Sequence record: PP975109.1
Source of the DNA: Escherichia phage IK_ECO1
Strand: one strand, 5' to 3'
Length of the DNA: 43,567 nt
This document shows, piece by piece, positions 17,831 to 43,567 of the stretch. Each line of letters begins with the position of its first letter. Position 1 is the stretch's first letter. Under the pieces are notes generated by a model. It made no database searches and was not told where the DNA came from. It was given only the letters and a program-made list of their open reading frames with translations. The position numbers and the translations under genes are program-made.

Positions 17831-17857
17831 TGGACGTTTAGACGTCTAGCAGGCCAA

Positions 17858-21136: not shown

Positions 21137-21138
21137 AT

Positions 21139-23251: not shown

Positions 23252-24285
23252 TGTATGGTGTTGACCTTAAACTACTGACAAAGATACTAACAACGCACCG
23301 ACCTAGCTGGGGTAGTACCAAATGGTTTGAGCCTCTTCTTAGTGGTGCCCTTGCCAATGCAGAGCACTATGTAAGGGATGCGCACGGTAACTACTTTGTA
23401 CTAATTGGTAACTCTGAACAGAGCGACGTAGCGTTTACATCACACCTCGATACAGTGGCCCGGCCCGGTAGCGCTGCGCCGGACATTGCAATTACTAACA
23501 AGGGCGTAATGTTCCTGCGGAATCCACAGGTTGCGGACTGTCTCGGGGCAGACTGTGGTGCCGGTATCTACCTGATGCTGGAGATGATTAAGCGCGGTGT
23601 GCATGGACGTTACTGCTTCTTCGTGGATGAGGAAGTAGGTTGTGAGGGCAGCAGAGCATCAGCCAAGGACGATACTGGCTTCTGGACTGGGGTCAAGGCA
23701 ATGATTAGCTTTGACCGCCGGGGTGATGGTATCATCACGCATCAACGATACCAGCGTTGCTGTTCTGATACGTTCGCAAAAGAACTCGCGGCCCGGCTAG
23801 GGCGCACGGAAGCGCACTTACAGAAAGGAGTGTACACTGACTCTGCCGAGTTCATAAGTATTATCCCAGAGTGCACTAACGTAGGCGTAGGGTACATGCA
23901 TGAGCATACACCAGACGAGGTGTTGGACTTGAATATACTCGGACAAGTACTTGAGCGCGTACTACAAGCGGGTACGTTCAAGCACCTACCGATTGAGCGG
24001 GATCCTAAGGTAGTGGAGCCGGATGCGTGGTTGTCCGCCTCAGCGTACCCTTTTGTCACAGCGCTGGATATTCCCCCTGCAGAGGATCCGCATTTACTAG
24101 CAGCATTCAAGGAGGTGTCACAGCTTTCTAAGCAGCAACTGATTGGTTGGGTGTTGGATAACCCGGCAAGAGCGGCAGAGTACATCATGGTGTATTCTGA
24201 CTATGGATTTAAAGATGAGCTGATTGAACTAGGTACCCGAGTTGTAGAGGACTGGGGTGGGTATGATAATATTGTGGAGGGTTGA
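23251..24285 (+). CDS. Putative Zn-metallopeptidase-like protein (M20/M28/M42-type motif order), 344 aa
   Basis: Motif order H-x-D (SHLDTV), GADCGAG, DEEVGCEG, later HEH, as in aminopeptidase-type metal sites; read by eye, not searched. Confidence 0.35.
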   Translation: MYGVDLKLLTKILTTHRPSWGSTKWFEPLLSGALANAEHYVRDAHGNYFVLIGNSEQSDVAFTSHLDTVARPGSAAPDIAITNKGVMFLRNPQVADCLGADCGAGIYLMLEMIKRGVHGRYCFFVDEEVGCEGSRASAKDDTGFWTGVKAMISFDRRGDGIITHQRYQRCCSDTFAKELAARLGRTEAHLQKGVYTDSAEFISIIPECTNVGVGYMHEHTPDEVLDLNILGQVLERVLQAGTFKHLPIERDPKVVEPDAWLSASAYPFVTALDIPPAEDPHLLAAFKEVSQLSKQQLIGWVLDNPARAAEYIMVYSDYGFKDELIELGTRVVEDWGGYDNIVEG

Positions 24286-24287
24286 TT

Positions 24288-24746
24288 ATGTCTAAGTTTA
24301 AAGTTGGTGATAAGGTTGTACGCAAACATTATAAAGATGATGAGATATTTAAAAGCAGACAAGGGGATTGTATTTACTACACAATTACTGATATGTCCGA
24401 ACATGGCTACTGGCTGCAGTTGAATAACTTTTCCTACGATGGTGATCGCGTGCCGTGGTCTGCTGCCAACTTCGAGCTATATCAAGAGCCGGACGACGAG
24501 CTGCCACCGGTTCCGGACAGCGTCTACTATCCGGATATGTACACACTGTTAACGGGGTTACGTGCATGTGAAGGTACATCCGGGTTAACTGTGCGGAAAT
24601 CTCCATATACCTCGGGGGCTTTAAGCCTATCTATTGATGATAGTAAATGGACACGATTAGATGCGGATGCAGCCCTGCAGTTAGCGCATGACCTACGCCG
24701 CATGGCTATGGAGATTCGGAGGAAGGAGAAAGCTAGTGAAGTATGA
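24288..24746 (+). CDS. Hypothetical protein, 152 aa, N-terminal FKVGDKV barrel-like motif
   Basis: ATG 24288 with RBS ggaggg; N-terminus similar to the protein at 27422. Confidence 0.45.
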   Translation: MSKFKVGDKVVRKHYKDDEIFKSRQGDCIYYTITDMSEHGYWLQLNNFSYDGDRVPWSAANFELYQEPDDELPPVPDSVYYPDMYTLLTGLRACEGTSGLTVRKSPYTSGALSLSIDDSKWTRLDADAALQLAHDLRRMAMEIRRKEKASEV

Positions 24747-25197
24747 GTATAACCCGGATACCGGCGAGATACTCCGTTACGGAAAACCCGTGGGGTCTAA
24801 GGACTCCTCTGGGTATTTGGTGGTATGGGTAGATGGCAAGTGCTGGAGAGCACACCGTCTTGCTTACCATTTGCAAGGCCTGCCTGTACCCAAACAAGTG
24901 GACCACATAAACGGCATCCGAGACGATAACAGGTGGATTAATCTGCGAGCAGCCACTAACTCGCAGAACCAATACAATAGAAAACCCTGCTCTTCCTCAG
25001 GGAATTTGAAGGGTGCTTATTACAATAAAGCAATGCGTAGTTGGTATTCTTTAATCAGGGTAAATGGTAAACGTAAGTATCTAGGTTCCTTTACTTCTGA
25101 GGAAGCAGCTCACGCTGCCTATGTGGAAGCGGCACAGCAACTACATGAGGGTTTTGATATATGGACGAGCCGTGGCTTAGAGCCTGCAAGCGCCTAG
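24736..25197 (+). CDS. HNH homing endonuclease with AP2-type DNA-binding domain
   Basis: HRLAYH…VDHINGIRDDNRWINL…SQNQ (HNH) followed by GAYYNKAMRSWYSLIRVNGKRKYLGSFTSEEAAHAAY (AP2-like); GTG 24736 likely start, or ATG 24688. Confidence 0.7.
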   Translation: MKYEYNPDTGEILRYGKPVGSKDSSGYLVVWVDGKCWRAHRLAYHLQGLPVPKQVDHINGIRDDNRWINLRAATNSQNQYNRKPCSSSGNLKGAYYNKAMRSWYSLIRVNGKRKYLGSFTSEEAAHAAYVEAAQQLHEGFDIWTSRGLEPASA

Positions 25198-25949
25198 CTA
25201 TAGGGCAGTCCAGCAGGTTCAGGTGCTGCGGGAGCACTCCCGCGGCGATAATCTACAACAAGCAAGACGCCTGGAGTATGTACTGTTTCCGGTGTCACAA
25301 AACAGTTAATGAGCGCAAGCAGTATCAGCGCATACAGTTACAGGAAGAGCCGAGGGTGCAGCCCTCTGCACCTGCAGATGCAATTTGCATTAGCCAAGCG
25401 ACTGCAGAAACACAGAGTTTTATTTACGGATTCCTTGCTTCAAAAGGAATCATGCCTGAAATGGTGGAGGATGCAGAATGGAGCAACGAGAAACAGCGGA
25501 TACTATTCCGTGTCGGGGGTGCTGTACTGGGTCGTGCTGTTCATGCCCGACAGCAACCGAAGTGGGTAATGTACGGCCAGCCAATACCGTTCGCTGCCGT
25601 GGGACCTGCCGTAGCACCGGATGTAGCTGCGGCCGCACCTCTAAAGGTCGTGCTCACCGAGGACTTACTCTCAGCCCGGAAGATACAGCACGCAGTTACG
25701 AGCTACAGTGCGTTGAACGTGCAGGCTATAGCTATGCTGGGTACACGCTTGCCCACGCCGCTAAGGGCCTGGCTGATTCAGAATCGCCCGGAAGCGATTC
25801 TGATGCTAGACAATGACCCGGCAGGGCACGCTGGGGTAGCGGCGGCGCGCAAAGCACTGCGCCCGTTCATGCAGTGCCGAGAACACTACTTCGCTGCGGA
25901 CCCTAAGGACGCAGAAATCAAGGAGATACTGGAGGCTTTGGATGTTTAA
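25161..25949 (+). CDS. DNA primase (zinc-binding N-terminus plus TOPRIM), 262 aa
   Basis: Cys cluster CCGS…CFRCH; TOPRIM-like LTEDLLSA and LMLDNDPAGHAG motifs; precedes helicase. Confidence 0.6.
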   Translation: MDEPWLRACKRLAIGQSSRFRCCGSTPAAIIYNKQDAWSMYCFRCHKTVNERKQYQRIQLQEEPRVQPSAPADAICISQATAETQSFIYGFLASKGIMPEMVEDAEWSNEKQRILFRVGGAVLGRAVHARQQPKWVMYGQPIPFAAVGPAVAPDVAAAAPLKVVLTEDLLSARKIQHAVTSYSALNVQAIAMLGTRLPTPLRAWLIQNRPEAILMLDNDPAGHAGVAAARKALRPFMQCREHYFAADPKDAEIKEILEALDV

Positions 25950-26148
25950 GAATAAGTACAGAGTAGTGCAGGACAGCTACGCAGGATTTGAGGCGCAGGT
26001 TAAGTTCTGGTGGTTTCCGGTGCGCTGGTGGCAACTGTGCAGATCCGGGCGTGGGGTGGGTACTAACACGTACCCCAACCTTCATGAGGCAGAGAGCCTG
26101 TGTCGAGTACACGCCAGAAAGAGTACCATCTACAAAGTGGAGGTTTAA
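25942..26148 (+). CDS. Hypothetical protein, 68 aa
   Basis: RBS ggagg before ATG; between primase and helicase. Confidence 0.4.
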   Translation: MFKNKYRVVQDSYAGFEAQVKFWWFPVRWWQLCRSGRGVGTNTYPNLHEAESLCRVHARKSTIYKVEV

Positions 26149-27429
26149 TTGGACCTAATAGTAGTCAAGGCAATGTGCACGCAGAAGGTCTGGAACCGAC
26201 TGCGAGAGCAGATACCAAAGAGCATGCTCGCCCCCGATACCTCTAACCTACTGGACTGGGTAGGGCTGTACTGGAACACGTACCCGGAACACCAGGAGGT
26301 GCAGTGGGATGCGATGCAGAGCATGCTCAACCTCCGGGCCGGGCATCTATCCCGTGAAGAGCGGGTGATTATGGATGAGCTTATGCGGGGAGTACAAGCC
26401 GTGCCACAGGATTCTGTGGTGGGGATTGTCCAGACCCTGAACGAGCTAGCCTACAGCGGGGAGGTTGCGGCACTTACACAGCGCTACCAAGACGGTGAGG
26501 AGGTTGATTATCTTCTGGAGATGAAGCACCTCCAGCGCAAGTACGGTGATGGTGCTGCTGTTCATGATTCGCTACTGGAATGGGAGAGCGGAAGTGTTGA
26601 TGAGATACTTGCCGCGACTGATGAAAGTGGCGGGCTTAAACTGGGTGTGTTTGAGCAGCTGTCTAATAGCATTCGTGGGCTTCGCGGCGGTGATTGCATC
26701 GCCGTTGCTGCCCCTGTTGATTCTGGTAAAACTAGTCTACTCGCTGCTATTGCCGTGGACTTTGCTAAGCAGATGCAGCAGCAACCGGAAGTATACGGGG
26801 ATCGTCCGATTCTGTGGTTGGTTAACGAAGGCCCGGCGACGCGTACAGTGCCGAGGGTATATCAAGCGGCGCTGCATTGGACTCTGGCTGAGATTAAGGA
26901 GAGGCACAGTAAGCAAGAGTTTGTGCCAGCCTATCTAGAGAAAGTAGGTAGGGCCGACCGTATTCGTATCAAGGCAGCTCACTCTCTTACTATGGCTCAA
27001 ATCTCTACACTCATGGAGGAGATGCGCCCGGCAGTAATCATCATAGATATGGTGGCCAACATCCGTGGCGGAACTATGGAGAGCGAGCACCAGAATCTAG
27101 AGGCGAAGTGGCAGGAGCTGCGTATCTTGGGGTGTGAGAATGACTGTGCTGTTATTGGTACTATGCAGCTTTCACTCGAAGGTTACAACCTACTGTTTCC
27201 TCCGCTCACAGCAATGAAGCAGAGTAAGATTGGTGTACAAGGCGCTTTGGATTTGGCGATTATGATGGGGTGCTTGGACAGGAACGAGCAGCCGCATATG
27301 CAAAACATCCGTGGTATCAGTACACCTAAGAACAAGATGGCACTGTCTGGTAAGGAGTCGCTACTGCAATTTGAGGTAGCATTCGACCCAGGTAGGTGCC
27401 GATTTAATGAGGGTCAAATTAATGTGTAA
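26149..27429 (+). CDS. Replicative DNA helicase (DnaB/gp4-like), 426 aa
   Basis: Walker A AAPVDSGKTSLLA and Walker B-like VIIIDMV; TTG start at 26149 or ATG at 26173. Confidence 0.7.
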   Translation: MDLIVVKAMCTQKVWNRLREQIPKSMLAPDTSNLLDWVGLYWNTYPEHQEVQWDAMQSMLNLRAGHLSREERVIMDELMRGVQAVPQDSVVGIVQTLNELAYSGEVAALTQRYQDGEEVDYLLEMKHLQRKYGDGAAVHDSLLEWESGSVDEILAATDESGGLKLGVFEQLSNSIRGLRGGDCIAVAAPVDSGKTSLLAAIAVDFAKQMQQQPEVYGDRPILWLVNEGPATRTVPRVYQAALHWTLAEIKERHSKQEFVPAYLEKVGRADRIRIKAAHSLTMAQISTLMEEMRPAVIIIDMVANIRGGTMESEHQNLEAKWQELRILGCENDCAVIGTMQLSLEGYNLLFPPLTAMKQSKIGVQGALDLAIMMGCLDRNEQPHMQNIRGISTPKNKMALSGKESLLQFEVAFDPGRCRFNEGQINV

Positions 27430-27742
27430 TTTTAAAATTGGTGATAAAGTACGGCGCGATGTTGACCTAACCCGTGAGGCAGCTGACCGTACAGGTGTTC
27501 GTAGGGGTCGTGTATACACCGTTCGTAACGCAAGCGAGGCGATGATACAGCTGGTCGAATCAAAGGAACCTACCTTTCACTTTGCTCCAGAGGCATTCTC
27601 CCTAGTATCCCACAGTACTAATTGGGATGTAAATGAAGCGTTACGTCTGCGGGACTTGGCGGTACAGGCTATACAGGAGTATAACACGTACCTGCTGCGG
27701 CAGCCGCTGCTAGAGGCTATTGATATTCCGCTAATCAAGTGA
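27422..27742 (+). CDS. Hypothetical protein, 106 aa, N-terminal FKIGDKV motif (paralog of 24288 gene N-terminus)
   Basis: MCNFKIGDKVRR aligns with MSKFKVGDKVVR; alternative ATG at 27407. Confidence 0.45.
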   Translation: MCNFKIGDKVRRDVDLTREAADRTGVRRGRVYTVRNASEAMIQLVESKEPTFHFAPEAFSLVSHSTNWDVNEALRLRDLAVQAIQEYNTYLLRQPLLEAIDIPLIK

Positions 27743-27747
27743 CTTCC

Positions 27748-27780
27748 CTAGCGCCTTCCTAGAGGGCGCTATGTAGGTAC
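27748..27780 (+). promoter_or_regulatory. Conserved stem-loop element, copy 3 (ctagcgccttcctagagggcgctatgtaggtac)
   Basis: Stem tagcgcc / ggcgcta followed by tatgt…gta as in copies 1 and 2. Confidence 0.35.
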
Positions 27781-27792
27781 ATAGGAGGCTAT

Positions 27793-27948
27793 TATGCTTA
27801 AACCGTCAGACATCAACTACCTCGATGACGAGGTAATCAAGGTGTACGCTGCATCTGCAGGTACTTTCCGTAAACGATTCGCGCTGGAAGTTAGCCAGCT
27901 GATTGTGCATCTGGCTATCAACAAGGCTCGGAGGACTAATTGGAAATG
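27793..27948 (+). CDS. Small hypothetical protein, 51 aa
   Basis: RBS ataggagg before ATG 27793; stop overlaps HNH start (ATGA); below track threshold. Confidence 0.3.
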
Positions 27949-28395
27949 AGTGAGTGCGTAGACCACGGACAGAAGGGAAGCACTTGCCGAGGAAAGGGTG
28001 CTGGATATGGCCGCTCCAGATTTGACGGGGAGACAACTGGCAGCCACCGCAAAGCATACTGTATAGCCCACAACTTGAAGCTGAGCGATATCGCGGGACT
28101 TGTAGTCCGGCATTCGTGCGACAATCCTCGGTGCATAAATCCGGAGCACCTGCTACTAGGGACTTCTAGCGATAATATGCAGGACCGAAATAAAGGTGCG
28201 CGTAATTTACTGGGCAGCCGCAACCCTGCTGCCAGACTTACCCCAGAAGACGTGCACAGCATACGAGAAGCATACGCTGGCGGTGAGACCCAGGTATCTA
28301 TAGCGAGACGCTTCGGGACAAGTCAAGGATACATATCTAATATCATAAAGGGGAGGGTATGGAATGAGCAGAAGCATCCTGATAACGGATTATGA
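27946..28395 (+). CDS. HNH endonuclease, about 149 aa
   Basis: VVRHSCDNPRCINPEHLLLGTSSDNMQDR; ATG 27946 with RBS ggagga; 3' end overlaps the DNA polymerase start by 32 nt. Confidence 0.7.
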   Translation: MSECVDHGQKGSTCRGKGAGYGRSRFDGETTGSHRKAYCIAHNLKLSDIAGLVVRHSCDNPRCINPEHLLLGTSSDNMQDRNKGARNLLGSRNPAARLTPEDVHSIREAYAGGETQVSIARRFGTSQGYISNIIKGRVWNEQKHPDNGL

Positions 28396-30739
28396 GACGC
28401 AAAATCACCCGTATTACGGTAGCGTTGCTTCCCCGTACTGTCCGGATAATTACATCGTAGAATCAGCGTGGCGTATTGACCGCACGCACGATGACGGTAC
28501 GGTAGAAGTAGGCCCCGTAGAGAGTGTACGGTATAACAGTCGCGCGCACTTTGAAGCGGCACCTGTATCAGAATGGCTCCCAATACCAGCTGACTGTTGG
28601 CTGATTGTGGCCCACAACGCCGCATATGAGATTAGCTGGTTCCTAACCTTTGCGCGCGCCGAGTTTGAGGCCTTCCTAAAGCGGGGAGGTCGCGTATTCT
28701 GTACGATGCATTCTGAGTACATCGCCTCGGACTTTCAGAACATGTATCCTTCGCTGGACGAGACGGCTCCTAAGTACGGCGGTACGCACAAAGTAGATGG
28801 GGTTAAGATTCTCTGGGAGCAGGGTGTATTAACCTCCCAGATTGACCCGATGCTGCTGCACGACTACCTAGTTAACGGGGACATCCCGAACACGGCCCTA
28901 TGCTTCTACGGGCAGTGCGCTACGTTCGCCCAGCGTAACCAGATGCAGTACGTGTGGGAACGTATGGATGCCTTACTGGCCTGGGCCTACTGCGAATGGT
29001 TCGGTCTGTTCGTGAACATGCCCATTGCTCGCAAGAACCAAGAAGAGCAGGAACAGCGTATACTGGAGATTAAGAAGGAGCTGCAGCAGTACATCCCGAA
29101 GGACTTGCCGGAAACACTGGATTTCAACTTCGGCTCTGACTTTCATATGTCTGCGCTGGTCTACGGCGGGCCTATCAAGTATCGCAAGAAAGTGCCGTAC
29201 GACCCACCACAGTACGTTAAGTATGATGCGTATCTAGTGCAGGGCACTGACGGGACATTCGTACCATGCGATAGCACAGACGTTTCTGGGCCACATAATT
29301 ACGTAACCTACAAAGCAGGGAAGAACAAGGGCCTGCCAAAAGTGTTCCGAGTGGACACCGACGAGGAGAAACTTAAATGGGAGGATGATCTCTACTTCTG
29401 TCCGGGCCTGGTTAATATCCAAGAACTCCCCGAGGTGCTTCGAGAGAAGTATGCCGAGCGCGGAGAGTTCAGGCAAGCCCGGTGCCTGCAGGATGGGACA
29501 CCAGTCTACAGTACTAGCACCGACGCTATGGAAGCCCTAGCACGTCACGGGTTTGAGTTCTGTCGATTGGTGAACGAGCTAGGCGCTCTGGAGAAGGACA
29601 CGGGAACCTACTACTTAAGGGAGGTTCTTGATTCTGAGGGGCGCGTCAAAGAGCGCAAGGGGATGCTGCAGTATGTAATCCCGGAACGAGAAGATGGTTC
29701 AGGTATTATCCACCACCGTTTGAATACCAGCGCTACTGTGACGGGGCGTTTAAGCAGCTCTAACCCGAACCTGCAGAACCTGCCCCGCCCAGATGAGGAC
29801 GGGGATGGGGTGGCTAAATCCAAGGTGAAGCAGGTATTCACCAGTCGATTCGGCGATAACGGACGCATCACTGAGGTTGACTACTCGGCGCTGGAAGTGG
29901 TTATGTCCTGCGTGCATACGGGTGACAAGAAACTGCTGGGACTGCTGCAGAGTGGTACGGATATGCACTGCTACCGCCTAGCTTTCCGCGAGGAACTGCC
30001 CTATGAAGAAGTATATGAGCGCTGCCACAACAAGAAGCACGAGCTGCATCCGGTTTGGAAGGCAATGCGTACAGGTATTAAGGCTCCTAGCTTTGCAGCC
30101 CAGTATGGCGCTACGGCTAAGGGGATTGCGTTTGCTACTGGATGTACGGTGGAATTTGCACAGGCTTTCTTGGACAATGAGGCTGCGCTGTTCCCGCAAA
30201 CAATTGGCTTCCGCGCTGTTGTCAAGGAAGAGGTAGAGCGTACTGGGGCAGCCGGGCGTATTTATCGGGAACAAGCTGATGATGGTAGCTACCGCATCTA
30301 TCGCATTGGCACCTGGACCAGCCCAGCTGGTGCACGGTACAGCTTCCGCCAGAAGGAGCAGTGGAAGGAAGTAGTACCTGGCCAGCGCAAACAAAAGGTG
30401 ATGGACTACAAAGAAACTGAGATGGCTAACTACTGGTGTCAGGGTGAGGCATTCTTCCTGATGGCAGTAGCAGCTGGCATGGTTCTGCGTGCAATGCTGG
30501 CGCGTGATTGGTTCGATAACCAGGTGTGTTTGATTACGAACGTGCACGATGCGTTGTATCTGGATAGTGCTAATCCAGAAGTAGGCAGAGAAGCGAGCTT
30601 GTTGGTCAAGCAGTGTATGGAGGATGCGCCTAAGCGTATCCACCAGCTCTGGCCTAACTACGGCATCATTGGCGAGGTCCCGTTCCCAGCGGAAGCTGAA
30701 ATGGGTACGAGTATGTACAGCAAGGAGAAAGTAGAATGA
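28364..30739 (+). CDS. DNA polymerase, family A (T7 gp5-like) with 3'-5' exonuclease domain, 791 aa
   Basis: Exo I motif ITDYETQ; Pol I motif TGRLSSSNPNLQNLP; motif C-like NVHDALY. Confidence 0.85.
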   Translation: MSRSILITDYETQNHPYYGSVASPYCPDNYIVESAWRIDRTHDDGTVEVGPVESVRYNSRAHFEAAPVSEWLPIPADCWLIVAHNAAYEISWFLTFARAEFEAFLKRGGRVFCTMHSEYIASDFQNMYPSLDETAPKYGGTHKVDGVKILWEQGVLTSQIDPMLLHDYLVNGDIPNTALCFYGQCATFAQRNQMQYVWERMDALLAWAYCEWFGLFVNMPIARKNQEEQEQRILEIKKELQQYIPKDLPETLDFNFGSDFHMSALVYGGPIKYRKKVPYDPPQYVKYDAYLVQGTDGTFVPCDSTDVSGPHNYVTYKAGKNKGLPKVFRVDTDEEKLKWEDDLYFCPGLVNIQELPEVLREKYAERGEFRQARCLQDGTPVYSTSTDAMEALARHGFEFCRLVNELGALEKDTGTYYLREVLDSEGRVKERKGMLQYVIPEREDGSGIIHHRLNTSATVTGRLSSSNPNLQNLPRPDEDGDGVAKSKVKQVFTSRFGDNGRITEVDYSALEVVMSCVHTGDKKLLGLLQSGTDMHCYRLAFREELPYEEVYERCHNKKHELHPVWKAMRTGIKAPSFAAQYGATAKGIAFATGCTVEFAQAFLDNEAALFPQTIGFRAVVKEEVERTGAAGRIYREQADDGSYRIYRIGTWTSPAGARYSFRQKEQWKEVVPGQRKQKVMDYKETEMANYWCQGEAFFLMAVAAGMVLRAMLARDWFDNQVCLITNVHDALYLDSANPEVGREASLLVKQCMEDAPKRIHQLWPNYGIIGEVPFPAEAEMGTSMYSKEKVE

Positions 30740-30957
30740 CCATTAAACCGGGTAGTATTGTGGAAATAATTGGGCTTGGGCCGGAACCCTTAGAGCCTAG
30801 ACATCGTGACTACTTTGCACCGGGTACTCAGCATCGAGTGATATCTTATGACCCTGAACTTTGGGAGGTGGAGTTAATGAATCCAGACAATAATTCAGAG
30901 AAGCCTGGAGATGGTATTACCTTCTTCTCTGGAGAGTACAAACTTGTAGCGGAGTGA
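30736..30957 (+). CDS. Hypothetical protein, 73 aa, small barrel-like
   Basis: ATGA overlap with polymerase stop; N-terminus IKPGSIVEII. Confidence 0.4.
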   Translation: MTIKPGSIVEIIGLGPEPLEPRHRDYFAPGTQHRVISYDPELWEVELMNPDNNSEKPGDGITFFSGEYKLVAE

Positions 30958-31080
30958 TGATAGGTGGACCCTTGGGTGGTGTAGGGGGTTAGGGTAACAT
31001 GAGAATTAGCTGGGGTCAAGCAGATAATTAAATAAAATTATTTGTTGACTCTGGCTTGATTTTGTGATTCACAGAGAATT

Positions 31081-31099
31081 AATGTGATACGAGTAGGAA
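31081..31099 (+). promoter_or_regulatory. Variant of the repeated motif (aatgtgatacgagtaggaa), 20 nt upstream of the HNH gene at 31119; candidate phage RNAP promoter
   Basis: 16 of 19 positions match aatgttacaggagtaggaa; lies in an AT-rich intergenic segment. Confidence 0.3.
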
Positions 31100-31118
31100 C
31101 AACATAAGAGGATACCAA

Positions 31119-31553
31119 ATGTCGATGTGCATTGACCATGGGTATACCAAATGCCTTAATAAGAATGGGTACCGCCGGGCATGGTATAAGCCAACTAAGC
31201 GATTAGAGCTTCTGCACCGAGTGGTGTACGCTGAGCATAATGGGATAGATATAGGGGAGATGGCCGGGCTGTCTGTTAGACACACCTGCGATAACCCTAG
31301 GTGCATTAATCCAGAGCACTTAGTGCTGGGGACGCACTTAGATAATATGAACGACCGTGCAGAACGTGGGAGGAACCCGGATGTACGGGGAGAGCGGAAC
31401 CCAAAAGCACTGCTATCTTGGGAGGCCGTGCGGGATATTAGGGCCAACTATGTCCCGTACAAGAAAGGTGTGCGGCAACACTTTGCTAATAAGTATGGTG
31501 TGGGTGTACATGTAATTAGTGACGTAATAAGTAACAGGAGCTGGAATGCCTAA
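31119..31553 (+). CDS. HNH endonuclease, 144 aa (paralog of 27946 gene)
   Basis: SVRHTCDNPRCINPEHLVLGTHLDNMNDR, near-identical core to the 27946 protein; AT-rich codon usage. Confidence 0.7.
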   Translation: MSMCIDHGYTKCLNKNGYRRAWYKPTKRLELLHRVVYAEHNGIDIGEMAGLSVRHTCDNPRCINPEHLVLGTHLDNMNDRAERGRNPDVRGERNPKALLSWEAVRDIRANYVPYKKGVRQHFANKYGVGVHVISDVISNRSWNA

Positions 31554-32526
31554 GTTAAACACAATAAAGTTATTCACCAAAGAGCAACACGTAGATATCT
31601 TAAGCAAGCACAGTTCTAACGTGGACGCTGCGGCTGCTTACAATAAGCTTGCGGGATTAAGCGAGCCAGTGGTGTACCGCCAGATGGTTAAGTATTGGCG
31701 CAGCATCTTCCTAGACCATGGTGGTAGCAAGGGTAAGGCTGTGTCACATATGAAGGAAGCATTAAAGCTCATACAGCCAAGTCCGACTGATGACTTAGGT
31801 AAAACCTTTGTACCAGAGGTATGTCACCGCATCTTAGTGGTGGGGGATCTGCACGCCCCTTACACCCACATAGACGCTATGGACTTCTTAGAGTCTGTCC
31901 GAGACACTTACTGCCCGGACATGGTTGTACAGGTTGGGGATGAAACTGATGGGCATGCTATTTCGTTTCACGAAAGCAATCCGAACCTGGATAGCGCTGG
32001 GGTGGAGTTAGAGAAAGCCAAGCTCGTGCTGGAGGAGCTGTATGAACTATTCCCGAACCTACTGGTTTGCGATTCCAATCACGGGAGTCTGGTGTATCGC
32101 CGCGCCAAGGCTCACGGTTTACCAGTACAGTTCATTAAGAAATATCGGGACATTCTGTTCCCCGAACATGGTGCGCCTGCATGGTCGTGGGCTGACGCTT
32201 GGGTACTTAACACCCCTCTCGGCCCTGTACGTTTCCAGCACCAAGTTAGTGGTGACTTCATGCTTAACGCTTCCCACGAACGTACAAGCCTCGTCCTCGG
32301 TCATGAACATGGGCGCTTCGAGGTTCAGTATGCAGCATCAAGCACCGCTCTTTACTTCGGGGCATACGCCGGGTGCTTGATTGACCGCAAGAGTATGGCC
32401 TTTGCATACGGCAGACTCTCCCGCAAGAAACCAATCCTGGGTGTGCTGGTAATCACCGAGGGTTGCCCGCAATTAATTCCGATGCTGCTCGACGAAGATG
32501 GTCGTTGGGTTGGTCGTTCTAAATAA
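31546..32526 (+). CDS. Putative calcineurin-like metallophosphoesterase, 326 aa
   Basis: Motif order GDLHAPY, GDETDGH, CDSNHGS, LGHEHG resembles the metallophosphatase signature; read by eye. Confidence 0.45.
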   Translation: MPKLNTIKLFTKEQHVDILSKHSSNVDAAAAYNKLAGLSEPVVYRQMVKYWRSIFLDHGGSKGKAVSHMKEALKLIQPSPTDDLGKTFVPEVCHRILVVGDLHAPYTHIDAMDFLESVRDTYCPDMVVQVGDETDGHAISFHESNPNLDSAGVELEKAKLVLEELYELFPNLLVCDSNHGSLVYRRAKAHGLPVQFIKKYRDILFPEHGAPAWSWADAWVLNTPLGPVRFQHQVSGDFMLNASHERTSLVLGHEHGRFEVQYAASSTALYFGAYAGCLIDRKSMAFAYGRLSRKKPILGVLVITEGCPQLIPMLLDEDGRWVGRSK

Positions 32527-32539
32527 TAGAGAGGTAGTG

Positions 32540-32704
32540 ATGAAAATGGGAATCTGTTCTGTACTGGGCCTCATCTTCGTAACCCTGAAACTGACTGGAG
32601 TTATCGCCTGGTCTTGGCTGTGGGTGCTGCTCCCGTTCTGGGGCCCTGCTGCGCTGGCTGTAATCCTGGTGTTCGTTGCCGCCGCCGTCGCTTCAAAACG
32701 CTAA
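32540..32704 (+). CDS. Small membrane protein, 54 aa, two hydrophobic helices
   Basis: ATG 32540 after RBS gagg; sequence MKMGICSVLGLIFVTLKLTGVIAWSWLWVLLPFWGPAALAVILVFVAAAVA. Confidence 0.4.
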   Translation: MKMGICSVLGLIFVTLKLTGVIAWSWLWVLLPFWGPAALAVILVFVAAAVASKR

Positions 32705-32755
32705 GCCCTGCATCTGCACGTAAATATTATTTGAACTAAACGAGGACATAATTAT

Positions 32756-33589
32756 ATGACTATGAATGCACTGGACACTCTGAACTCCCTGGTAGCTGCT
32801 GCGATTGAAACGCAGGATGTTGATATGACTGAAACCTCACAGGGTGGTGCGTACGAGGATGTACTGCTGCCGAAGGGTGAGTACTATGGCTACTTCACCG
32901 AGTATGTGGAAATTGGTAAACGCCTACCGACTAAGGGTGGTAAACCTACGGGTAAGCCCGCCGCAGCGAATGTGCGTATCGGGATTGTGGTGTATGGCCC
33001 GAACGGTGAGGTGAAGCGTATCCGTCCGTATCCGATGACTATCAGCAACTTTGAGCGCGCTGGCTTCAAGAAGTTCTTCGACAAACTCAACTATGATGGC
33101 AGCATTAAGCACGCTGCGCAGCGACTGGGACAGGCGTTCGTATTCCCAGTGGATGAGCACACCAGCACGGCAGGTAAGAAGTCTAACATTGTAGACCTCG
33201 CAGCAATCCGTCCGATTCCGAAGTTCGACCCGAATACCGGCGAGCCGATTAAAATGCCTGAGCTGGATGCTTCCGAGATTAAGCTGTTCTTGTGGAACAA
33301 TCCGACCAAAGAAACCTGGGATAGCTTGTATATCGAAGGGACCAAGGATGATGGTAAGAGTAAAAACTGGATTCAGGAGGACATGTACAAGGCCGTAGAC
33401 TTCCCAGGCAGTGCGTTGGATATTATGCTGAATGCTGGTTCGGTTCCGAGTCCCCAGTCTATGCAGGCCCCAGCCACCCCGGCTGCGCCCACTGCACCAG
33501 CGGCACCAAGCGCCCCTGTAGCACCAGCAGCGCCAGTGGCTCCAGCGGCCCCTGTAGCGCCTGTAGCGCCTGCTGCACCGCAAGCCTAA
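32756..33589 (+). CDS. Hypothetical protein, 277 aa, C-terminal Pro/Ala-rich repeat tail; possible DNA-binding protein
   Basis: ORF with RBS gagga; C-terminus APATPAAPTAPAAPSAPVAPAAPVAPAAPVAPVAPAAPQA; function not assignable. Confidence 0.4.
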   Translation: MTMNALDTLNSLVAAAIETQDVDMTETSQGGAYEDVLLPKGEYYGYFTEYVEIGKRLPTKGGKPTGKPAAANVRIGIVVYGPNGEVKRIRPYPMTISNFERAGFKKFFDKLNYDGSIKHAAQRLGQAFVFPVDEHTSTAGKKSNIVDLAAIRPIPKFDPNTGEPIKMPELDASEIKLFLWNNPTKETWDSLYIEGTKDDGKSKNWIQEDMYKAVDFPGSALDIMLNAGSVPSPQSMQAPATPAAPTAPAAPSAPVAPAAPVAPAAPVAPVAPAAPQA

Positions 33590-33612
33590 GCAACCCTATT
33601 ACTAACTAATAC

Positions 33613-33628
33613 GGCCCCGCCTGGGGCC
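33613..33628 (+). other. GC hairpin ggcccc-gcct-ggggcc in intergenic spacer
   Basis: Perfect 6-bp stem, 4-nt loop; no T-run. Confidence 0.3.
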
Positions 33629-33641
33629 TTAGAGGAAGCCT

Positions 33642-33896
33642 ATGAATATCATCAAGATTCTCACCAAACTCCTGAGTGCAGCTTATACAGCAGAAGCTAA
33701 ACGTGCTGACGCTAAGGCACAACTGAATGAGCAGTTGTCGATTAAGTTTGCAGATGATGCGGTGCGCCTGGCGGCACAATCCGAGGCACGAGTAGAAGAC
33801 TCCAAACGCAGCAAAGCTGAAGCGGCTAAGTGCGCTGAACAGGCTGATAAACTGCGCGCTAAGCGTGATGAAGTAGTAAACTTTCTGGGGGTATGA
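33642..33896 (+). CDS. Hypothetical protein, 84 aa, predicted helical and charged
   Basis: RBS-like gaggaag upstream. Confidence 0.4.
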   Translation: MNIIKILTKLLSAAYTAEAKRADAKAQLNEQLSIKFADDAVRLAAQSEARVEDSKRSKAEAAKCAEQADKLRAKRDEVVNFLGV

Positions 33897-33899
33897 TTG

Positions 33900-34277
33900 A
33901 TGGATAAAGTACTAGATGCATACAAGAAGCTGGCCATTGCGGTCAGCGGCGCAGTTCACGATGCTACGATGGCAGATGCAGTGCGCATATACCGCCTTTG
34001 CGATGTTTATGACGCCCTGGACAAGCTCGCAGCCCTATATGGCATGGACCTGGAGCTGGCTGCCACCGCCTTCAAGGAGCACAATGACCTGGCGGCACAT
34101 GCCGATAAGTTACGAGGCGACGACCTAGTGCTTATTCGTGTAGTGGGTACACTTAGTATTGGTCTGGCGGAGATTGGTTCTTGTATCTATGACGTAGACC
34201 AGAGCCTGCGTACGCCGGAAGTAATCGGGGACATGCTTGGTACCGTGCTGGTGCTGTCTGAACTGGAGGGTAAATGA
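33900..34277 (+). CDS. Hypothetical protein, 125 aa
   Basis: ATG 33900 directly after upstream stop; track start is TTG 33897. Confidence 0.4.
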   Translation: MDKVLDAYKKLAIAVSGAVHDATMADAVRIYRLCDVYDALDKLAALYGMDLELAATAFKEHNDLAAHADKLRGDDLVLIRVVGTLSIGLAEIGSCIYDVDQSLRTPEVIGDMLGTVLVLSELEGK

Positions 34278-34438
34278 TGCGTAAAGTTATATCCTACATA
34301 TTCTTATTTCCCGCACTAGCGTTACTTGCAATTGGTTTGACGTTAATGGCGCTGGCGCTTAGTGTGGCAGGGGGCGCAAAGGGCGTGTCTGTGTTAACTC
34401 GTGCAATCCGTGCTTTTACTGATCACTTAAAGGTGTAG
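34274..34438 (+). CDS. Small membrane protein, 54 aa
   Basis: Overlaps upstream stop; hydrophobic core ISYIFLFPALALLAIGLTLMALALSVAG; below track threshold. Confidence 0.3.
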   Translation: MMRKVISYIFLFPALALLAIGLTLMALALSVAGGAKGVSVLTRAIRAFTDHLKV

Positions 34439-34441
34439 AGC

Positions 34442-34603
34442 ATGCGTAACTTCTTTGCGAAATCATTTTACTTCCTGTTAGTAGCCCCTCTAATTCCAGT
34501 GGCTATCCTGTGCTGGGTGTTTGAGAAGGTAGAGAACAGCAAGGCGCTCGCTGCATGGGAATCCTGGGCGCGTAAGTTAACTAATAAGGTTACGGGGGTC
34601 TAA
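34442..34603 (+). CDS. Small membrane protein, 53 aa
   Basis: Hydrophobic segment FYFLLVAPLIPVAILCWVF; stop overlaps next start. Confidence 0.3.
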   Translation: MRNFFAKSFYFLLVAPLIPVAILCWVFEKVENSKALAAWESWARKLTNKVTGV

Positions 34604-35571
34604 TGATTATCAATGGGGTTGACTTGTCCCAGCTCGGGGAGCAGTTAGCTCCGCAGAACTCTGGGAAGATTCTGCTGTACGATGCAGATTTCACAGTTTA
34701 TAAATCTGCTGCTACAGTGAAACGTTTGGACACCGCGATACGCCGCTTCTATCAGCTGCTGCTTGAGGACATGTTCCTGGTCGGTTGCTCTGAAGCAGTG
34801 GCGTATCTAACGCCCACAGGCTGTGCTAAGTGCTTACGCTGGCACCTGCCTACGGCTAAACCCTACCAGGGGCAGCGCGCTAACCGGCAGGAACTACCAC
34901 TGAAGGCGCCTTTGAAGCGGCACCTGATTGATAATCCGGACCAATATTCTGAGCAGGGTATCCAGGTAGTTAGTAGTGACTTCTTCGAGGCGGATGATCT
35001 GTTCATAATGGATTCGTACGCCTTCAAGGAGCGTGGCATACTGATGTCACAGGATAAAGATTCCTGGCTCAGTCCTATGGCTAGGTTTGATATCCCAACA
35101 GGTACAGTGTGGCCTGCACTAGAAGACCCATTCGGATGGATTAAATGGGACGATACCCAGGCTATGCCGGTACGGGCACACGGATTGAAGTTCTTCTGGT
35201 GGCAGATGCTAGCAGGGGATGACGCAGATAACGTAAAAGGCATCACATTGCTTGATGGGAAGCCCTGTGGCAAGCGAACAGCCTTTGATGCTATCTACCC
35301 TATTACCTCAGAGCAGGACGCCGCAGAATTCGTTGTAGCGGCTTATGCTAGAAACAATCAAGATGTACTCGCAGAGGCTGAATGCCTGTTCCTGCGACGC
35401 TCCCAATCGGATTCTGCCTATCAGTATCTGATGTCACTGTTGACTACTCCCAGTCTACGTGACTGGGTGCAGTCGCTGCACGAGTACCATAAACAGCACA
35501 TACAGTGGATACAGGAGCACCCAGACAATGGCGAAGATGTCTGCGAAGGAAATGAGCCTGCGGGCGATTGA
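34603..35571 (+). CDS. 5'-3' exonuclease (FEN / T7 gp6-like), 322 aa
   Basis: Acidic clusters LLYDADFTV, FEADDLFIMD and GDDADNVKGI typical of FEN-family metal sites. Confidence 0.6.
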   Translation: MIINGVDLSQLGEQLAPQNSGKILLYDADFTVYKSAATVKRLDTAIRRFYQLLLEDMFLVGCSEAVAYLTPTGCAKCLRWHLPTAKPYQGQRANRQELPLKAPLKRHLIDNPDQYSEQGIQVVSSDFFEADDLFIMDSYAFKERGILMSQDKDSWLSPMARFDIPTGTVWPALEDPFGWIKWDDTQAMPVRAHGLKFFWWQMLAGDDADNVKGITLLDGKPCGKRTAFDAIYPITSEQDAAEFVVAAYARNNQDVLAEAECLFLRRSQSDSAYQYLMSLLTTPSLRDWVQSLHEYHKQHIQWIQEHPDNGEDVCEGNEPAGD

Positions 35572-35731
35572 GTTATACTATGAGGGGAAACATGATGAAC
35601 TTGAAACTATTCTGGACGCGTTGCGTGAACGAGCACCCAAAACACATCGAAGAACAGTTGAGCATTTGGATTCTCTCATTCACGACAATGCTCTGCTGGA
35701 TGTAGTAGGGGAGATTGAACTGTGGCCCTGA
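35528..35731 (+). CDS. Hypothetical protein, 68 aa
   Basis: ATG 35528 in the track ORF 35459-35731; overlaps exonuclease 3' end in another frame. Confidence 0.3.
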   Translation: MAKMSAKEMSLRAIELYYEGKHDELETILDALRERAPKTHRRTVEHLDSLIHDNALLDVVGEIELWP

Positions 35732-36144
35732 GAAAGATTACACGTGCCCAGATTCGCTCTGTGGCTATTAAGCTTGCCAAGGACCAGGGAGGCGTATGCC
35801 TCCTTTGTGGCAAACCTTTGGACTTCACAATCAAGGGGGTAACTGGTGATTCTGTTGTCGTTGACCACGATCATATTACTGGGCGTATTCGGGGTGCTCT
35901 TCATCGCTCGTGCAATGGAGGGGAAGGCAAAGTGGCATCTGCCGCTGGGCGCTGGATTGTTGGTAGCATGCAATCTTCTAGGGCTATTGCTGAATCTCTA
36001 CGTAGGGTCGCCGATTACCTAGACCGCGAACCTACGGATATGCTATACTATACGCACAAGACGCCGGAAGAACTAGCACAGGCACAGAAGCTCAAGGCCC
36101 GCAAGGCCCGGGCACGACGTAAAGCACGGGAGATTATTAAATGA
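35722..36144 (+). CDS. Endonuclease VII-family Holliday-junction resolvase, 140 aa
   Basis: CLLCGK…VVVDHDHITGRIRGALHRSCN matches the endo VII zinc/HNH-like signature; GTG start. Confidence 0.7.
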   Translation: MALRKITRAQIRSVAIKLAKDQGGVCLLCGKPLDFTIKGVTGDSVVVDHDHITGRIRGALHRSCNGGEGKVASAAGRWIVGSMQSSRAIAESLRRVADYLDREPTDMLYYTHKTPEELAQAQKLKARKARARRKAREIIK

Positions 36145-36377
36145 GTGATGTAGTAAACTCACCTAAGCACTATCAGTTCTTCCCGGACCTGGAGGCAATC
36201 GAGGTGATCGCACGCAGTATGACGCAAGAGCAGTTCTACGGATACTGCTTAGGTAACAGATTAAAATACAGACTGCGCGCCGGGAACAAGGATAAGCTAG
36301 AGCAGGATATTGCTAAGTCTGACAAGTACTTAGAGTTGTATGGGCAGCACAAAGGGGAGTGTATTGACACCGAGTGA
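36141..36377 (+). CDS. DUF3310-family protein, 78 aa
   Basis: NSPKHYQFFPDLEAIEVI … GNRLKYRLRAGNKDKLEQDIAKSDKYL matches the conserved DUF3310 pattern; ATGA overlap. Confidence 0.55.
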   Translation: MSDVVNSPKHYQFFPDLEAIEVIARSMTQEQFYGYCLGNRLKYRLRAGNKDKLEQDIAKSDKYLELYGQHKGECIDTE

Positions 36378-36518
36378 GTGGTGTCACTGGATGTGGCAGA
36401 AAGCAATAGAGCGGGGTGATGAAAGCTCCGCTAATGACTACCTGGAGATGTACAATCTCTGGTTAAGTCGAAACCAGTAATTAGAAATACCGGACATAAC
36501 CAAGGAGATTAAGCGCCT

Positions 36519-38987
36519 ATGATTAGCGCCCTGAATACGGTTGTAGTACCAGAGGAAGCACTGGTGGAACGCCAGTTGGAGCTTGAAGAGACCTACAAGA
36601 TTCGCGGCATTGAACGTGCTCGCAAATTGATTACCGATGCTCTACAAAACGGCGGGATTATGAACCTGCCTATGACTCAGCGCATGCTAACCTCTGCGTA
36701 CGACGTGGCCTCTGCAGCCATTGAGGAAATGCGTAATGTCAAAGCCCCGGGTATCGGTGGAAAGTACCGCCGATTCCTACGCTTAGTCCCCTTGGATGTC
36801 CTAACTACTCTGAGCCTGTGCACAATGTTTGAGGCGTTCAGTGTTGCCCCTGGTGAGTCCGCCAGTCGCCGCCAGACAGCTCAGGCAGTGATGTCCGCTC
36901 TGGGTAGGAATGTACAGTCAGAGCTGCTGGCCCTACAACTACGTAATGTTGCTCCAGCGTATATGGACCGGGTATATGAATACCTCACTGAGCGCCGTAC
37001 TAAGTCACCTACGCACATTCTGCGTACGCTCCGCGCCAGTGCTGAGAACGTGCACTATGGGCATGAGCCTTGGACCAACGCTCATAATATTTCTGTGGGA
37101 CGTCTGCTGTGTTCCGCAGTGTTTGAGACGGGGCTGTTCCAGTGGAAGACTGGTAGCGGGAACTTGAGTATGCTCTATCCCGCAGATAATGTTATGGAAG
37201 CATTTCAGCAGTTAGTGGAATCTGCTGACACTGTAACTATGAAGCCTCCGATGCTGGTACCGCCGGTGCAACATACTACACTGTGGGATGGTGGATACCT
37301 CACCCCAATCGATAACCGTGGGACGTACCACAACTCACACATTGACCGCGCCAGACTGCGTGAAGTAGCGGAAGCATTTAAGTCTGCGGACGGTATCAAG
37401 AAGGCACTTAATAAGGCGCAGGAAACCCCTTATCGCATTAATAAGCGAATACTGGAACTGGTACAAGAAGCACGGGCCTTAGGTATTGGTGTAGGTATGC
37501 CGCGCTCAGTGCCAGAGCCGAAACCTGAGTGGTACTTAGATGGTGTACCAAAAGAGAATTACACCGAGGAGGAACTCGACCGCTTCGGAGAGTGGAAGAC
37601 GCGCATGTCCTTATGGTACAGCGCCGACCGTAAACGTGTGTCGCAACTACGTAGTCTATTGACCACGCTAGAGATGGCAGAGGAATTCAAAGATGAGAAA
37701 GCCCTATACTTCCCAACCTGTGTGGATTGGCGGTACCGGCTGTACTTCAAGTCCTCACTGCACCCCCAAGGTTCTGATTTGCAGAAGGCACTTCTTGAAT
37801 TCGGACGAGGTAAACCTCTGGGAGAGAGAGGGTTATTCTGGCTTAAAGTGCACGTCGCTACCTGTTTTGGTTATGACAAAACCCTATTCGAAGACCGTGC
37901 AGCTTGGGTTGATGCAAACTTTGCAGAGATTGAGCAGCTCGCGGATTCTCCTTTTGATTGCCCTGCTTTTACCTCCGCCGACAGCCCTTGGTGCTTCCTG
38001 GCAGCCGCTATCGACTTGGTTAATGCTGTACGTTCTGGATGCCCAGAAGAGTATATTAGCCGAATCCCAGTTGCTATGGATGCTACAAACTCAGGTGGTC
38101 AGCACCTCTCAGCGCTCCTGAGAGACCCTGTAGGCGGGCGTCTGACTAACCTGTACTGGGAGGGTAACGACAAGAAAGCGGACCTGTATATGGACGTGAA
38201 GCGCCGTACGGACGAGAAGGTGATACTGGACCTGGACAAAGAGGATTTCGTTATCCAGAGCACGTACTGGAGAGAGAACGAAATCACTCGAAGCATGACC
38301 AAGCGTCCTAGCATGACCTACTTCTACAGCGCCACGGTGCGCAGCTGCAGCGACTACATCTTTGCAGGGGCCTGTGAAGAGGGGTATGAAGGAACAGACA
38401 CGCACAGTCTCTGGAACCTTTCCTGCTACCTTGCCCCTAGGATGCGTAGCGCTATCGAGGAAGCTAACCCGGCAGCAGCAGCAGCTATGGGGTATCTGCA
38501 GAACCTCGCTAGGCGTGTACCTGCTAGTCAGCACCTGCAGTGGAAGACCCCGCTAGGGGGGCTGGTGATGAACCGGTACTCTCAACGAGAGGAGGTGCGT
38601 GTACGTATTGACTGCATGAACTTGTCTGCCGTGCTGGTGCACAACCGTGACTTTAAGACCTGTAATAAGCGCAAGGCCGCCTCTGGTATTGCCCCGAACT
38701 TTGTACATAGCCTGGATAGCACACACCTCATGATGGTGCTCTGTGCTGCAGAAGGTATAGATATTATACCTATTCACGATTCGATGGCTACTCACGCATC
38801 TGACGTTGATGCTCTGCACCGCCATATCCGTGAACAGTTTGTGAAGCTGTACGAGGAGCATGATCTTCTGGGGGATATTACCCGAGCAGCTGCTGAAGCG
38901 GGGGCAGATCTTACAGACCTGGAGATGCCTGCAATAGGTACTTTGGACATCCGACAAGTACTGGAATCACCCTTCTTCTTCTCATAA
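36519..38987 (+). CDS. DNA-directed RNA polymerase, single-subunit T7-type, 822 aa
   Basis: Catalytic-region motifs AMDATNSGGQHLSALL (T7 DGSCSGIQHFSAML equivalent) and IPIHDSMATHASD (T7 HDSFGT equivalent); size. Confidence 0.9.
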   Translation: MISALNTVVVPEEALVERQLELEETYKIRGIERARKLITDALQNGGIMNLPMTQRMLTSAYDVASAAIEEMRNVKAPGIGGKYRRFLRLVPLDVLTTLSLCTMFEAFSVAPGESASRRQTAQAVMSALGRNVQSELLALQLRNVAPAYMDRVYEYLTERRTKSPTHILRTLRASAENVHYGHEPWTNAHNISVGRLLCSAVFETGLFQWKTGSGNLSMLYPADNVMEAFQQLVESADTVTMKPPMLVPPVQHTTLWDGGYLTPIDNRGTYHNSHIDRARLREVAEAFKSADGIKKALNKAQETPYRINKRILELVQEARALGIGVGMPRSVPEPKPEWYLDGVPKENYTEEELDRFGEWKTRMSLWYSADRKRVSQLRSLLTTLEMAEEFKDEKALYFPTCVDWRYRLYFKSSLHPQGSDLQKALLEFGRGKPLGERGLFWLKVHVATCFGYDKTLFEDRAAWVDANFAEIEQLADSPFDCPAFTSADSPWCFLAAAIDLVNAVRSGCPEEYISRIPVAMDATNSGGQHLSALLRDPVGGRLTNLYWEGNDKKADLYMDVKRRTDEKVILDLDKEDFVIQSTYWRENEITRSMTKRPSMTYFYSATVRSCSDYIFAGACEEGYEGTDTHSLWNLSCYLAPRMRSAIEEANPAAAAAMGYLQNLARRVPASQHLQWKTPLGGLVMNRYSQREEVRVRIDCMNLSAVLVHNRDFKTCNKRKAASGIAPNFVHSLDSTHLMMVLCAAEGIDIIPIHDSMATHASDVDALHRHIREQFVKLYEEHDLLGDITRAAAEAGADLTDLEMPAIGTLDIRQVLESPFFFS

Positions 38988-38993
38988 AATTTA

Positions 38994-39010
38994 ATGTTAC
39001 AGGAGTAGGA
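38994..39010 (+). promoter_or_regulatory. Copy of repeated motif atgttacaggagtagga directly downstream of the RNAP gene, abutting the ATG of the next gene; candidate phage RNAP promoter
   Basis: Exact identity with copies at 7085 and 18310; position analogous to T7 promoters just downstream of gene 1. Confidence 0.4.
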
Positions 39011-39454
39011 ATGAAGTTAAAACACACTAGTAAAACACCCAATACTCACTCACTAAAAGTTCTGCATAAGCACGATGATATTAGAGAAGCAGTGAGGGCT
39101 CTGCACGAACTTGGTCACGGCATTAGTCGGGGCCTTACCACAGAGCAACACTATTGGAGAGTACTAAAAAGTATACTAGGTAAACAGTATATACTAGGAG
39201 TCTATGACTCCCGGGGCGACTTAGTAGGTGCTGTCAGTTACTACCCGGAAGCTGTAGAGGACTGCCATTACGTAGAGCCTGTGTTGTACACAGACTTCTT
39301 CGTATTGAAACCAGGAAACAGTGAGGCAATGCTTGTAGTTATGAAGGGTCTGCAAGCAATCGCTAAGTGTATGCGAGCTGGGCGCATCGCCATTAGTCGC
39401 AATACATCGGATAATACTTACAAAACAACTTACCATTTAGTGAGGTCAGCATGA
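39011..39454 (+). CDS. Hypothetical protein, 147 aa, possibly GNAT-like acetyltransferase fold; lower GC than neighbours
   Basis: ORF with AT-rich codon usage; weak resemblance to GNAT core (ILGVYDSRGDLVGAVSYY … FFVLKPGNSEAMLVVMKGL); speculative. Confidence 0.3.
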   Translation: MKLKHTSKTPNTHSLKVLHKHDDIREAVRALHELGHGISRGLTTEQHYWRVLKSILGKQYILGVYDSRGDLVGAVSYYPEAVEDCHYVEPVLYTDFFVLKPGNSEAMLVVMKGLQAIAKCMRAGRIAISRNTSDNTYKTTYHLVRSA

Positions 39455-43463: not shown

Positions 43464-43502
43464 CGCCCCTGGTGCCTTCGGGTGCCAGGGGCTTTTTTTT
43501 TT
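43464..43502 (+). terminator. Rho-independent terminator: 12-bp stem gcccctggtgcc / ggtgccaggggc, UUCG loop, T11 tail
   Basis: Seen in sequence; lies after the capsid gene cluster, analogous to T7 T-phi; the T-run is also the start of the window. Confidence 0.8.
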
Positions 43503-43567
43503 TGTCCCTGTCTTAAGGGTCCTAGGGGTCTTTAATAGAGGAACAAATATGAGAGAATTAGATGCTG

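Follow-up and report, generated by a model that had tools for sequence, protein, structure and literature searches.

Results

A Drulisvirus genome with a KP34-like RNA polymerase

The gene for a single-subunit RNA polymerase (RNAP) of the T7 type occupies positions 36519-38987 (+) of the 43,567-nucleotide stretch of Escherichia phage IK_ECO1 analysed here (PP975109.1), the whole of which is referred to below as the window. The 17-mer ATGTTACAGGAGTAGGA begins at 38994, 7 nt past the stop codon of this gene (38985-38987), and runs up to the first open reading frame (ORF) that follows, at 39011-39454 (+). The capsid gene block further on closes with an intrinsic terminator at 43465-43503 (+), consisting of GCCCCTGGTGCCTTCGGGTGCCAGGGGC and then a T run, a sequence also given as the terminator of Klebsiella phage KP34 and its relatives. 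The motif recurs inside the gene for a gp16-like internal virion protein of 1232 aa (6340-10038, +), annotated in relatives as "internal virion protein with endolysin domain", and again in a non-coding stretch, 17644-19431; a variant precedes an HNH endonuclease gene at 31119-31553 (+; Pfam HNH_3, 1.3e-10). Rfam and tRNA scans of the whole window gave no match.

The window is a circularly permuted Drulisvirus genome (KP34-like; Autographiviridae, Slopekvirinae). Its first 77 bases (1-77) repeat the last 77 (43491-43567) with one mismatch, C at 25 for A at 43515; this has the look of an end overlap left by a circular assembly, so that about 43490 nt are unique and the terminator's tail is present twice. 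Over the RNAP region, DNA identity is 98% with Klebsiella phage KPV811, 93-97% with several Escherichia and Shigella phages and about 86% with KP34. The phage belongs to the KPV811/Minorna/SFN6B branch of the genus.

The RNAP ORF encodes 822 aa with Pfam matches to RNA_pol (4.7e-90) and RPOL_N. At the protein level, identity is 99.9% with KPV811 and 95% with KP34 (over 821 aa), and the alignment to T7 RNAP extends over almost the whole length (E = 5e-69). Residues D537, Y639 and D812 of the T7 enzyme are conserved in the alignment as D521, Y603 and D754; Y603 is the residue mutated by Lu et al. 2019 (PMC6834552). Only two substitutions, K676Y and S688T, separate the protein from KP34 RNAP within residues 661-720, a range that takes in the part aligned to the T7 specificity loop; the segments matching that loop and the AT-rich recognition loop are themselves identical. 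We therefore see no grounds for expecting the promoter specificity to differ.

A repeated motif identical to the KP34 strong promoter

An earlier note on this DNA had counted three exact copies of the 17-mer and one variant, all on the coding strand, judged this to be far beyond chance, and read the copies as candidate promoters of a phage RNAP. A scan of both strands, with 100 dinucleotide-preserving shuffles as a control, bore out both the count and the judgement. Exact copies lie at 7085-7101, 18310-18326 and 38994-39010, all on the plus strand, and the sole further match at up to 3 mismatches is 31082-31098 (+), with 3 mismatches to ATGTTACAGGAGTAGGA. These four sites compare with a shuffle mean of 0.10, and four were reached in none of the 100 shuffles. 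An 18-mer, TAATGTTACAGGAGTAGG, searched at up to 3 mismatches, recovered the same four sites (the elements at 7083, 18308, 38992 and 31080), against 0 in 30 shuffles, and the window holds no site with 4 mismatches to it. Neither the 17-mer nor the 18-mer scan found a promoter copy on the minus strand of the window. Matches in an exact-pattern scan of IMG/VR were mostly single and due to chance; two to three copies occurred only in a few Drulisvirus contigs of 43-44 kb. The contexts that the note had assigned to the sites (gp16-like gene, non-coding left region, after the RNAP gene, before an HNH gene) are all correct by ORFs and Pfam. As to the boundaries of the element, the 17-mer is real, but the conserved unit starts 2 nt further upstream, with T[A/G] at 7083, 18308 and 38992.

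This longer unit has been characterised in KP34. Lu et al. 2019 (Front Microbiol 10:2487, PMC6834552) combined in vitro transcription by the purified RNAP of that phage with 5'-RACE. The enzyme transcribed a template spanning the RNAP gene and the gap after it, and the start mapped to nt 22213, the first base after a 16-nt strong promoter, 5'-T(A/G)ATGTTACAGGAGTA-3'. KP34 carries this promoter at 475-490 (S2, the TG form), at 22197-22212, directly after the RNAP gene, and at 33721-33736; S2 proved as efficient as S1 in vitro, and the 14-nt core by itself was much less efficient with KP34 RNAP (PMC6834552). The 16-mers of the window are identical to these base for base, TAATGTTACAGGAGTA at 7083 and 38992 and TGATGTTACAGGAGTA at 18308, and the copies map one to one, KP34 475 to window 18308, 22197 to 38992 and 33721 to 7083. 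GGA stands directly 3' of all three 16-mers, as it does of the 31080 variant. The 17-mer corresponds to positions -14 to +3 of the KP34 promoter, its last GGA being the first three transcribed bases.

The element thus shows no difference from the KP34 strong promoter: the 16-nt sequence, the TA and TG forms, the G at +1 and the three positions are all the same. In sequence, initiating G, cognate RNAP, positions and co-direction, the three copies conform to the KP34-type (Drulisvirus) strong promoter. We consider it highly probable that they are promoters of the phage's own T7-type RNAP, and the same element as in KP34. The identity of the promoter, the 95%-identical RNAP and the shared layout all support the reading put forward in the earlier note; we infer activity in this phage from KP34, given the closeness of the enzymes and the identity of the DNA.

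The three copies in their genomic context

The copy that follows the RNAP gene (S1, 38992-39007, +) is the equivalent of KP34 22197-22212, and transcription from it should start at G39008. The second S1 copy (7083-7098, +; KP34 33721-33736), with a predicted start at G7099, is situated 743 nt from the ATG of the gp16-like gene, an offset equal to that in KP34. The S2 copy (18308-18323, +; KP34 475-490), predicted to start at G18324, lies at the non-coding left end. In a BLAST comparison with the KP34 terminus, KP34 nt 1 aligns at about 17764, which is the predicted physical left end; the S2 copy is about 545 nt from it, past the terminal repeat and upstream of a sigma-70-like early promoter at 18782.

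Several other features of this part of the genome may be recorded. The terminal repeat extends over roughly 17764-18076. Two long G runs are found in the non-coding terminal region, at 17821-17831 and 19071-19083, and 17840-18300 is rich in short repeated words (CTAGTG, GCTATCC). Further into the early region, a motif, AGCCTATAGCGTCCTACGGGGCGCTATGTGAA, is present in two copies, 19652-19683 and 20444-20475. It was predicted to be a phage promoter by Eriksson et al. 2015 and found inactive in vitro by Lu et al. 2019 (PMC6834552). Both copies form a 10-bp hairpin that is lengthened by pairing of the flanks (z = -3.5 and -3.9), and they look more like an RNA processing or attenuation site of the early region.

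KP34 also has a weak promoter, ACTTTGGACATCCGTCAAGT, inside the RNAP gene at 22144-22163 (PMC6834552). A homologue, ACTTTGGACATCCGACAAGT, occupies the same place in the 3' end of the RNAP gene of the window (38940-38959, +), 33 nt upstream of the strong promoter, with one mismatch to KP34, a T to A substitution.

Conservation within and outside the genus

Ten other Drulisvirus genomes were scanned in full along with the window: KP34, KPV811, Minorna, EC22.5-2, BUCT-H1, cp48, cmc20192, 128-44573, SFN6B and NTUH-K2044-K1-1. In all ten, the gene strand carries the motif at each of these three positions. Its absence from orthologous positions in relatives would have counted against the promoter reading according to the earlier note; it is there in KP34 and in every other genome of the genus that was scanned.

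The post-RNAP copy is the most constant, the 16-mer and the next 29 nt being invariant in 11 of 11 genomes, and a 51-nt block around it is found in 238 phage records. Minorna, 128-44573 and NTUH-K2044-K1-1 have extra genes behind the RNAP gene, and in these the promoter stays with the gene downstream. The insertions include a small ORF in Minorna (21759-22097) and an HNH gene in NTUH-K2044-K1-1 (20851-21327), each lying between the RNAP gene and the strong promoter.

The internal promoter keeps its offset of 743 nt in the gp16-like gene in 10 of the 11 genomes; in SFN6B, where the gene (31479-35741) has 564 extra nt upstream of the promoter, the offset is 1307 nt. Only 23% of the degenerate codons of this gene that are invariant at the amino acid level in the 11 genomes are invariant in nucleotides as well. 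The promoter covers six consecutive nucleotide-invariant codons (249-254), a run tied for second longest in the gene, and comparison with the 23% background points to selection on the DNA sequence itself. The longest nucleotide-invariant run of the gene in the 11 genomes lies within window 6340-6402 and consists of the 14 codons 8-21; a further run of six, codons 1-6, precedes it.

The left-end copy is in position in 11 of 11 genomes and is the most variable, with one further substitution in three of them: C at -6 in Minorna and EC22.5-2, and A at -13 in NTUH-K2044-K1-1. Megablast found the left-end block in at least 73 records, a lower bound since the program needs an exact 28-nt word.

Comparison with outgroups shows the predicted promoter sequence to be specific to the genus. 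A genome scan of Pantoea phage LIMElight, whose RNAP is 56% identical, found no KP34-type motif, and the candidate promoters annotated in that genome are unrelated, of the ACGTTATAGAGAGA type. Shigella phage Buco (Bucovirus, RNAP 66% identical) has a different 12-mer core, CACGGTATAGTA, which is exact at the post-RNAP and middle sites, has one mismatch inside the gp16-like gene, and is found nowhere else in that genome at up to one mismatch. In Enterobacter phage phiKDA1 (RNAP 64.5%), CACGTATAGAA occurs twice after the RNAP gene, with similar copies near the left end.

A candidate fourth promoter at 31080

The variant, TAATGTGATACGAGTA (31080-31095, +), departs from the strong promoter at three positions (-10, -8 and -6); in the window, GGAACAACATAAGAG comes next. 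Matching 13 of the 16 bases of the KP34 consensus, it was not assigned to the strong-promoter class; it is probably a fourth, middle-region promoter and is treated here as a candidate. The HNH gene begins 21 nt past the 17-mer match (31082-31098). The predicted +1 is G31096; a transcript from there would have 23 nt of leader, GGAACAACAUAAGAGGAUACCAA, including a ribosome-binding site of its own. Invariance in 11 of 11 genomes (16-mer at KP34 12983-12998) extends over the 16-mer and the nine bases after it, GGAACAACA, and a 35-nt block containing the variant occurs once in each of 219 phage records at 95% identity or more. Past AAGAG the sequence differs, including the gene downstream, which is HNH in the window and Minorna, gp22 in KP34 and others elsewhere; the promoter-like block and leader stay constant while the gene behind them changes.

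Lu et al. 2019 listed three strong copies and one weak promoter only, and the variant is absent from that list (PMC6834552); its sequence has no occurrence in the searchable literature. At about 3.5 per genome, the 467 KP34-like promoters that the PhageProm study predicted in 135 genomes may include a site of the 31080 type in some of them.

One could envision that the site is not an RNAP promoter at all and is instead some other intergenic element, for instance a promoter of the host polymerase, an origin of replication or a 5' leader. Its absence from the list of Lu et al. would fit this idea, as would the location of its three substitutions, which fall in the expected recognition region. 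Moreover, conservation extends over the entire block from about -58 to +15, upstream TTGACT and TTGATT hexamers included; conservation alone is therefore no proof of a promoter. Against this, a variable patch of 5-7 nt separates the upstream block from the promoter-like block of the variant in the 11 genomes, and a sigma-70 scan gave no match meeting its criteria that overlaps either the 31080 site or the upstream block. In the sister genus Bucovirus, the orthologous middle site of Buco carries that genus's own promoter-like core, as an exact 12-mer. Finally, a match of this quality to the 18-mer is expected only about 0.03 times per genome and was seen in none of 30 shuffles. We regard the non-promoter explanation as possible, though the less likely of the two, and incline slightly towards the variant being a genuine fourth promoter, weaker and "class II-like", with the DNA polymerase block before it and the distal DNA-metabolism genes behind it. 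The G-to-C change at -6 is also found in the left-end promoters of Minorna and EC22.5-2. The upstream conserved block itself, AAATTATTTGTTGACTCTGGCTTGATT(C/T)TGTGATT at 31030-31074, just upstream of the variant, is nearly invariant in the 11 genomes and recognisable in Buco as GTTGACATACGCTTGAATCTGTGA.

Discussion

The promoter element described here is already known, and its identification in the window is an ordinary finding: a promoter characterised before, now met in one more phage of a genus that has been well sampled. It brings nothing new on how such promoters work. The functional unit would be the 16-bp duplex T(A/G)ATGTTACAGGAGTA, at -16 to -1, with synthesis beginning with GTP at the following G and GGA as +1 to +3. 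By analogy with T7, the AT-rich recognition loop of the polymerase may read the TAAT/TGAT end and the specificity loop the central TGTTACA, and the AGTA just 5' of +1 would be the part that is melted.

We infer a role for each copy from its surroundings. The 38992 promoter would drive the block of head and structural genes, up to the terminator at 43465-43503. The 7083 promoter would renew transcription for the distal late genes, namely tail fibre, terminase, lysis and tail spike. The 18308 promoter, between the terminal repeat and the host-type early promoters, would occupy a position like that of T7 phiOL.

In T7, phiOL has the terminal repeat on one side and the host early promoters on the other, another promoter follows the RNAP gene and some are in late genes. 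Left-end, post-RNAP and within-late-gene placement is thus common to T7 and the window. The polymerases are of the same family and presumably recognise their promoters in the same mode, and T7 promoters (TAATACGACTCACTATAGGGAGA) have in common with those of the window a TAAT 5' end, TA before +1 and a GG start. However, the central recognition sequences are unrelated, T7 has 17 copies of a 17-bp element against three to four copies of a 16-bp one, and the RNAP gene of the window ends the DNA-metabolism block, whereas that of T7 begins it. In a direct comparison with the T7-group consensus (TAATACGACTCACTATAG type), only the TAAT start and the end, TA followed across the start point by GG, are common. 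KpnP RNAP, a T7-like polymerase, was set aside as a comparison.

The element also bears comparison with the phage-specific promoters of phiKMV and LUZ19, GgtTATGTCACacACAnnGG (Putzeys et al. 2024, PMC10914365). Compared with the consensus quoted there, the upstream half is similar (TAATGTTACA vs TTATGTCACA, 8 of 10 bases), but -6 to -1 differs, and the RNAPs are only about 34% identical. LUZ19 has an antisense promoter, in contrast to the window, whose minus strand has no copy of the motif.

A further question is whether the AGGAG that the motif contains has a part in translation, as the earlier note had suggested. At 38992, AGGAG (39001-39005) lies inside the promoter and 5 nt before the ATG at 39011, within the 5-9 nt upstream of a start codon that is expected of a Shine-Dalgarno sequence. 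At 7083 and 18308 no start codon follows it: the former copy is out of frame in a gene and the latter is non-coding. Transcripts made from the 38992 promoter would begin GGAAUG, starting 3 nt before the ATG and therefore without AGGAG. The same layout is seen in KP34, where transcription starts at 22213 and gp38 has its ATG at 22216, and a first ATG only 3 nt from the predicted 5' end of the mRNA is an unusual arrangement. A translational role is thus plausible on read-through mRNA, at the 38992 copy, and fails at the other two copies for want of a start codon; we put the likelihood that the 38992 AGGAG serves as a secondary ribosome-binding site on such mRNA at about even. One might go further and take the motif to be mainly a translation-initiation element, a Shine-Dalgarno AGGAG with a conserved context. 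The AGGAG-ATG junction is indeed invariant in 11 genomes, and the Minorna record annotates a ribosome-binding site there. However, a purely translational role would leave two of the three copies (7083 and 18308) unexplained, the conservation of the 16-mer reaches well past AGGAG, and the same DNA is a promoter in KP34 by experiment (PMC6834552). We find this alternative most improbable; AGGAG is a feature of the promoter, doubling as a ribosome-binding site at one copy at most.

Equally improbable is a role as a DNA-level site, be it a localized single-strand nick of the phiKMV kind or a homing or recombination site: although the reverse complement of the core, CCTACTCCTG, has 9 of the 10 bases of the nick-associated motif CCTACTCCGG of phiKMV and LUZ19, and gene cassettes, including HNH genes, vary beside two of the motif sites, the orientation is opposite to that in LUZ19, which has CCTACTCCGG on its gene strand, the window lacks the CGAC-N5 part upstream, the one nick mapped in a Drulisvirus (fHe-Kpn01, nt 7873) is off all promoter positions, and promoter activity accounts directly for the data (PMC6834552). 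The likeness of the promoter core to the nick motif may be a coincidence. On the minus strand, CCTACTCCTG is found at 7100-7091, 18325-18316 and 39009-39000; as candidates for the complete phiKMV-type nick site, CGAC-N5-CCTACTCCGG, these were rejected, each offering only CCTACTCC(T)G on the opposite strand. In LUZ19, the nick-motif copy at 14422 comes after the DNA polymerase block, as does the 31080 site in Drulisvirus.

With the three copies read as promoters of the phage RNAP, the transcription map of the window comprises three promoters that we call certain, together with a weak-promoter homologue, a likely middle promoter and a terminator. These promoter sites are annotated in none of the related database records that we inspected; knowledge of them should therefore be useful for annotation, and also to those who employ polymerases of the KP34 type as tools for orthogonal expression.

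The variant at 31080 is the only modestly new point and the lone part worth an experiment. If it is a promoter, probably a weaker one, the genes transcribed from it would be the distal ones for DNA metabolism and that for the RNAP. We found no convincing terminator between the variant and the RNAP gene; therefore, if the variant is a true promoter, RNAP would be under the control of its own product, in a positive feedback. The presence of a middle site in Bucovirus, and probably in Koutsourovirus, each with its own promoter-like core, suggests that a plan of four promoter positions may be common to the Slopekvirinae. As a true promoter, the variant would also offer a ready-made promoter and leader to the different cassettes, such as the HNH genes and the gp5.5-like gene, that lie behind it.
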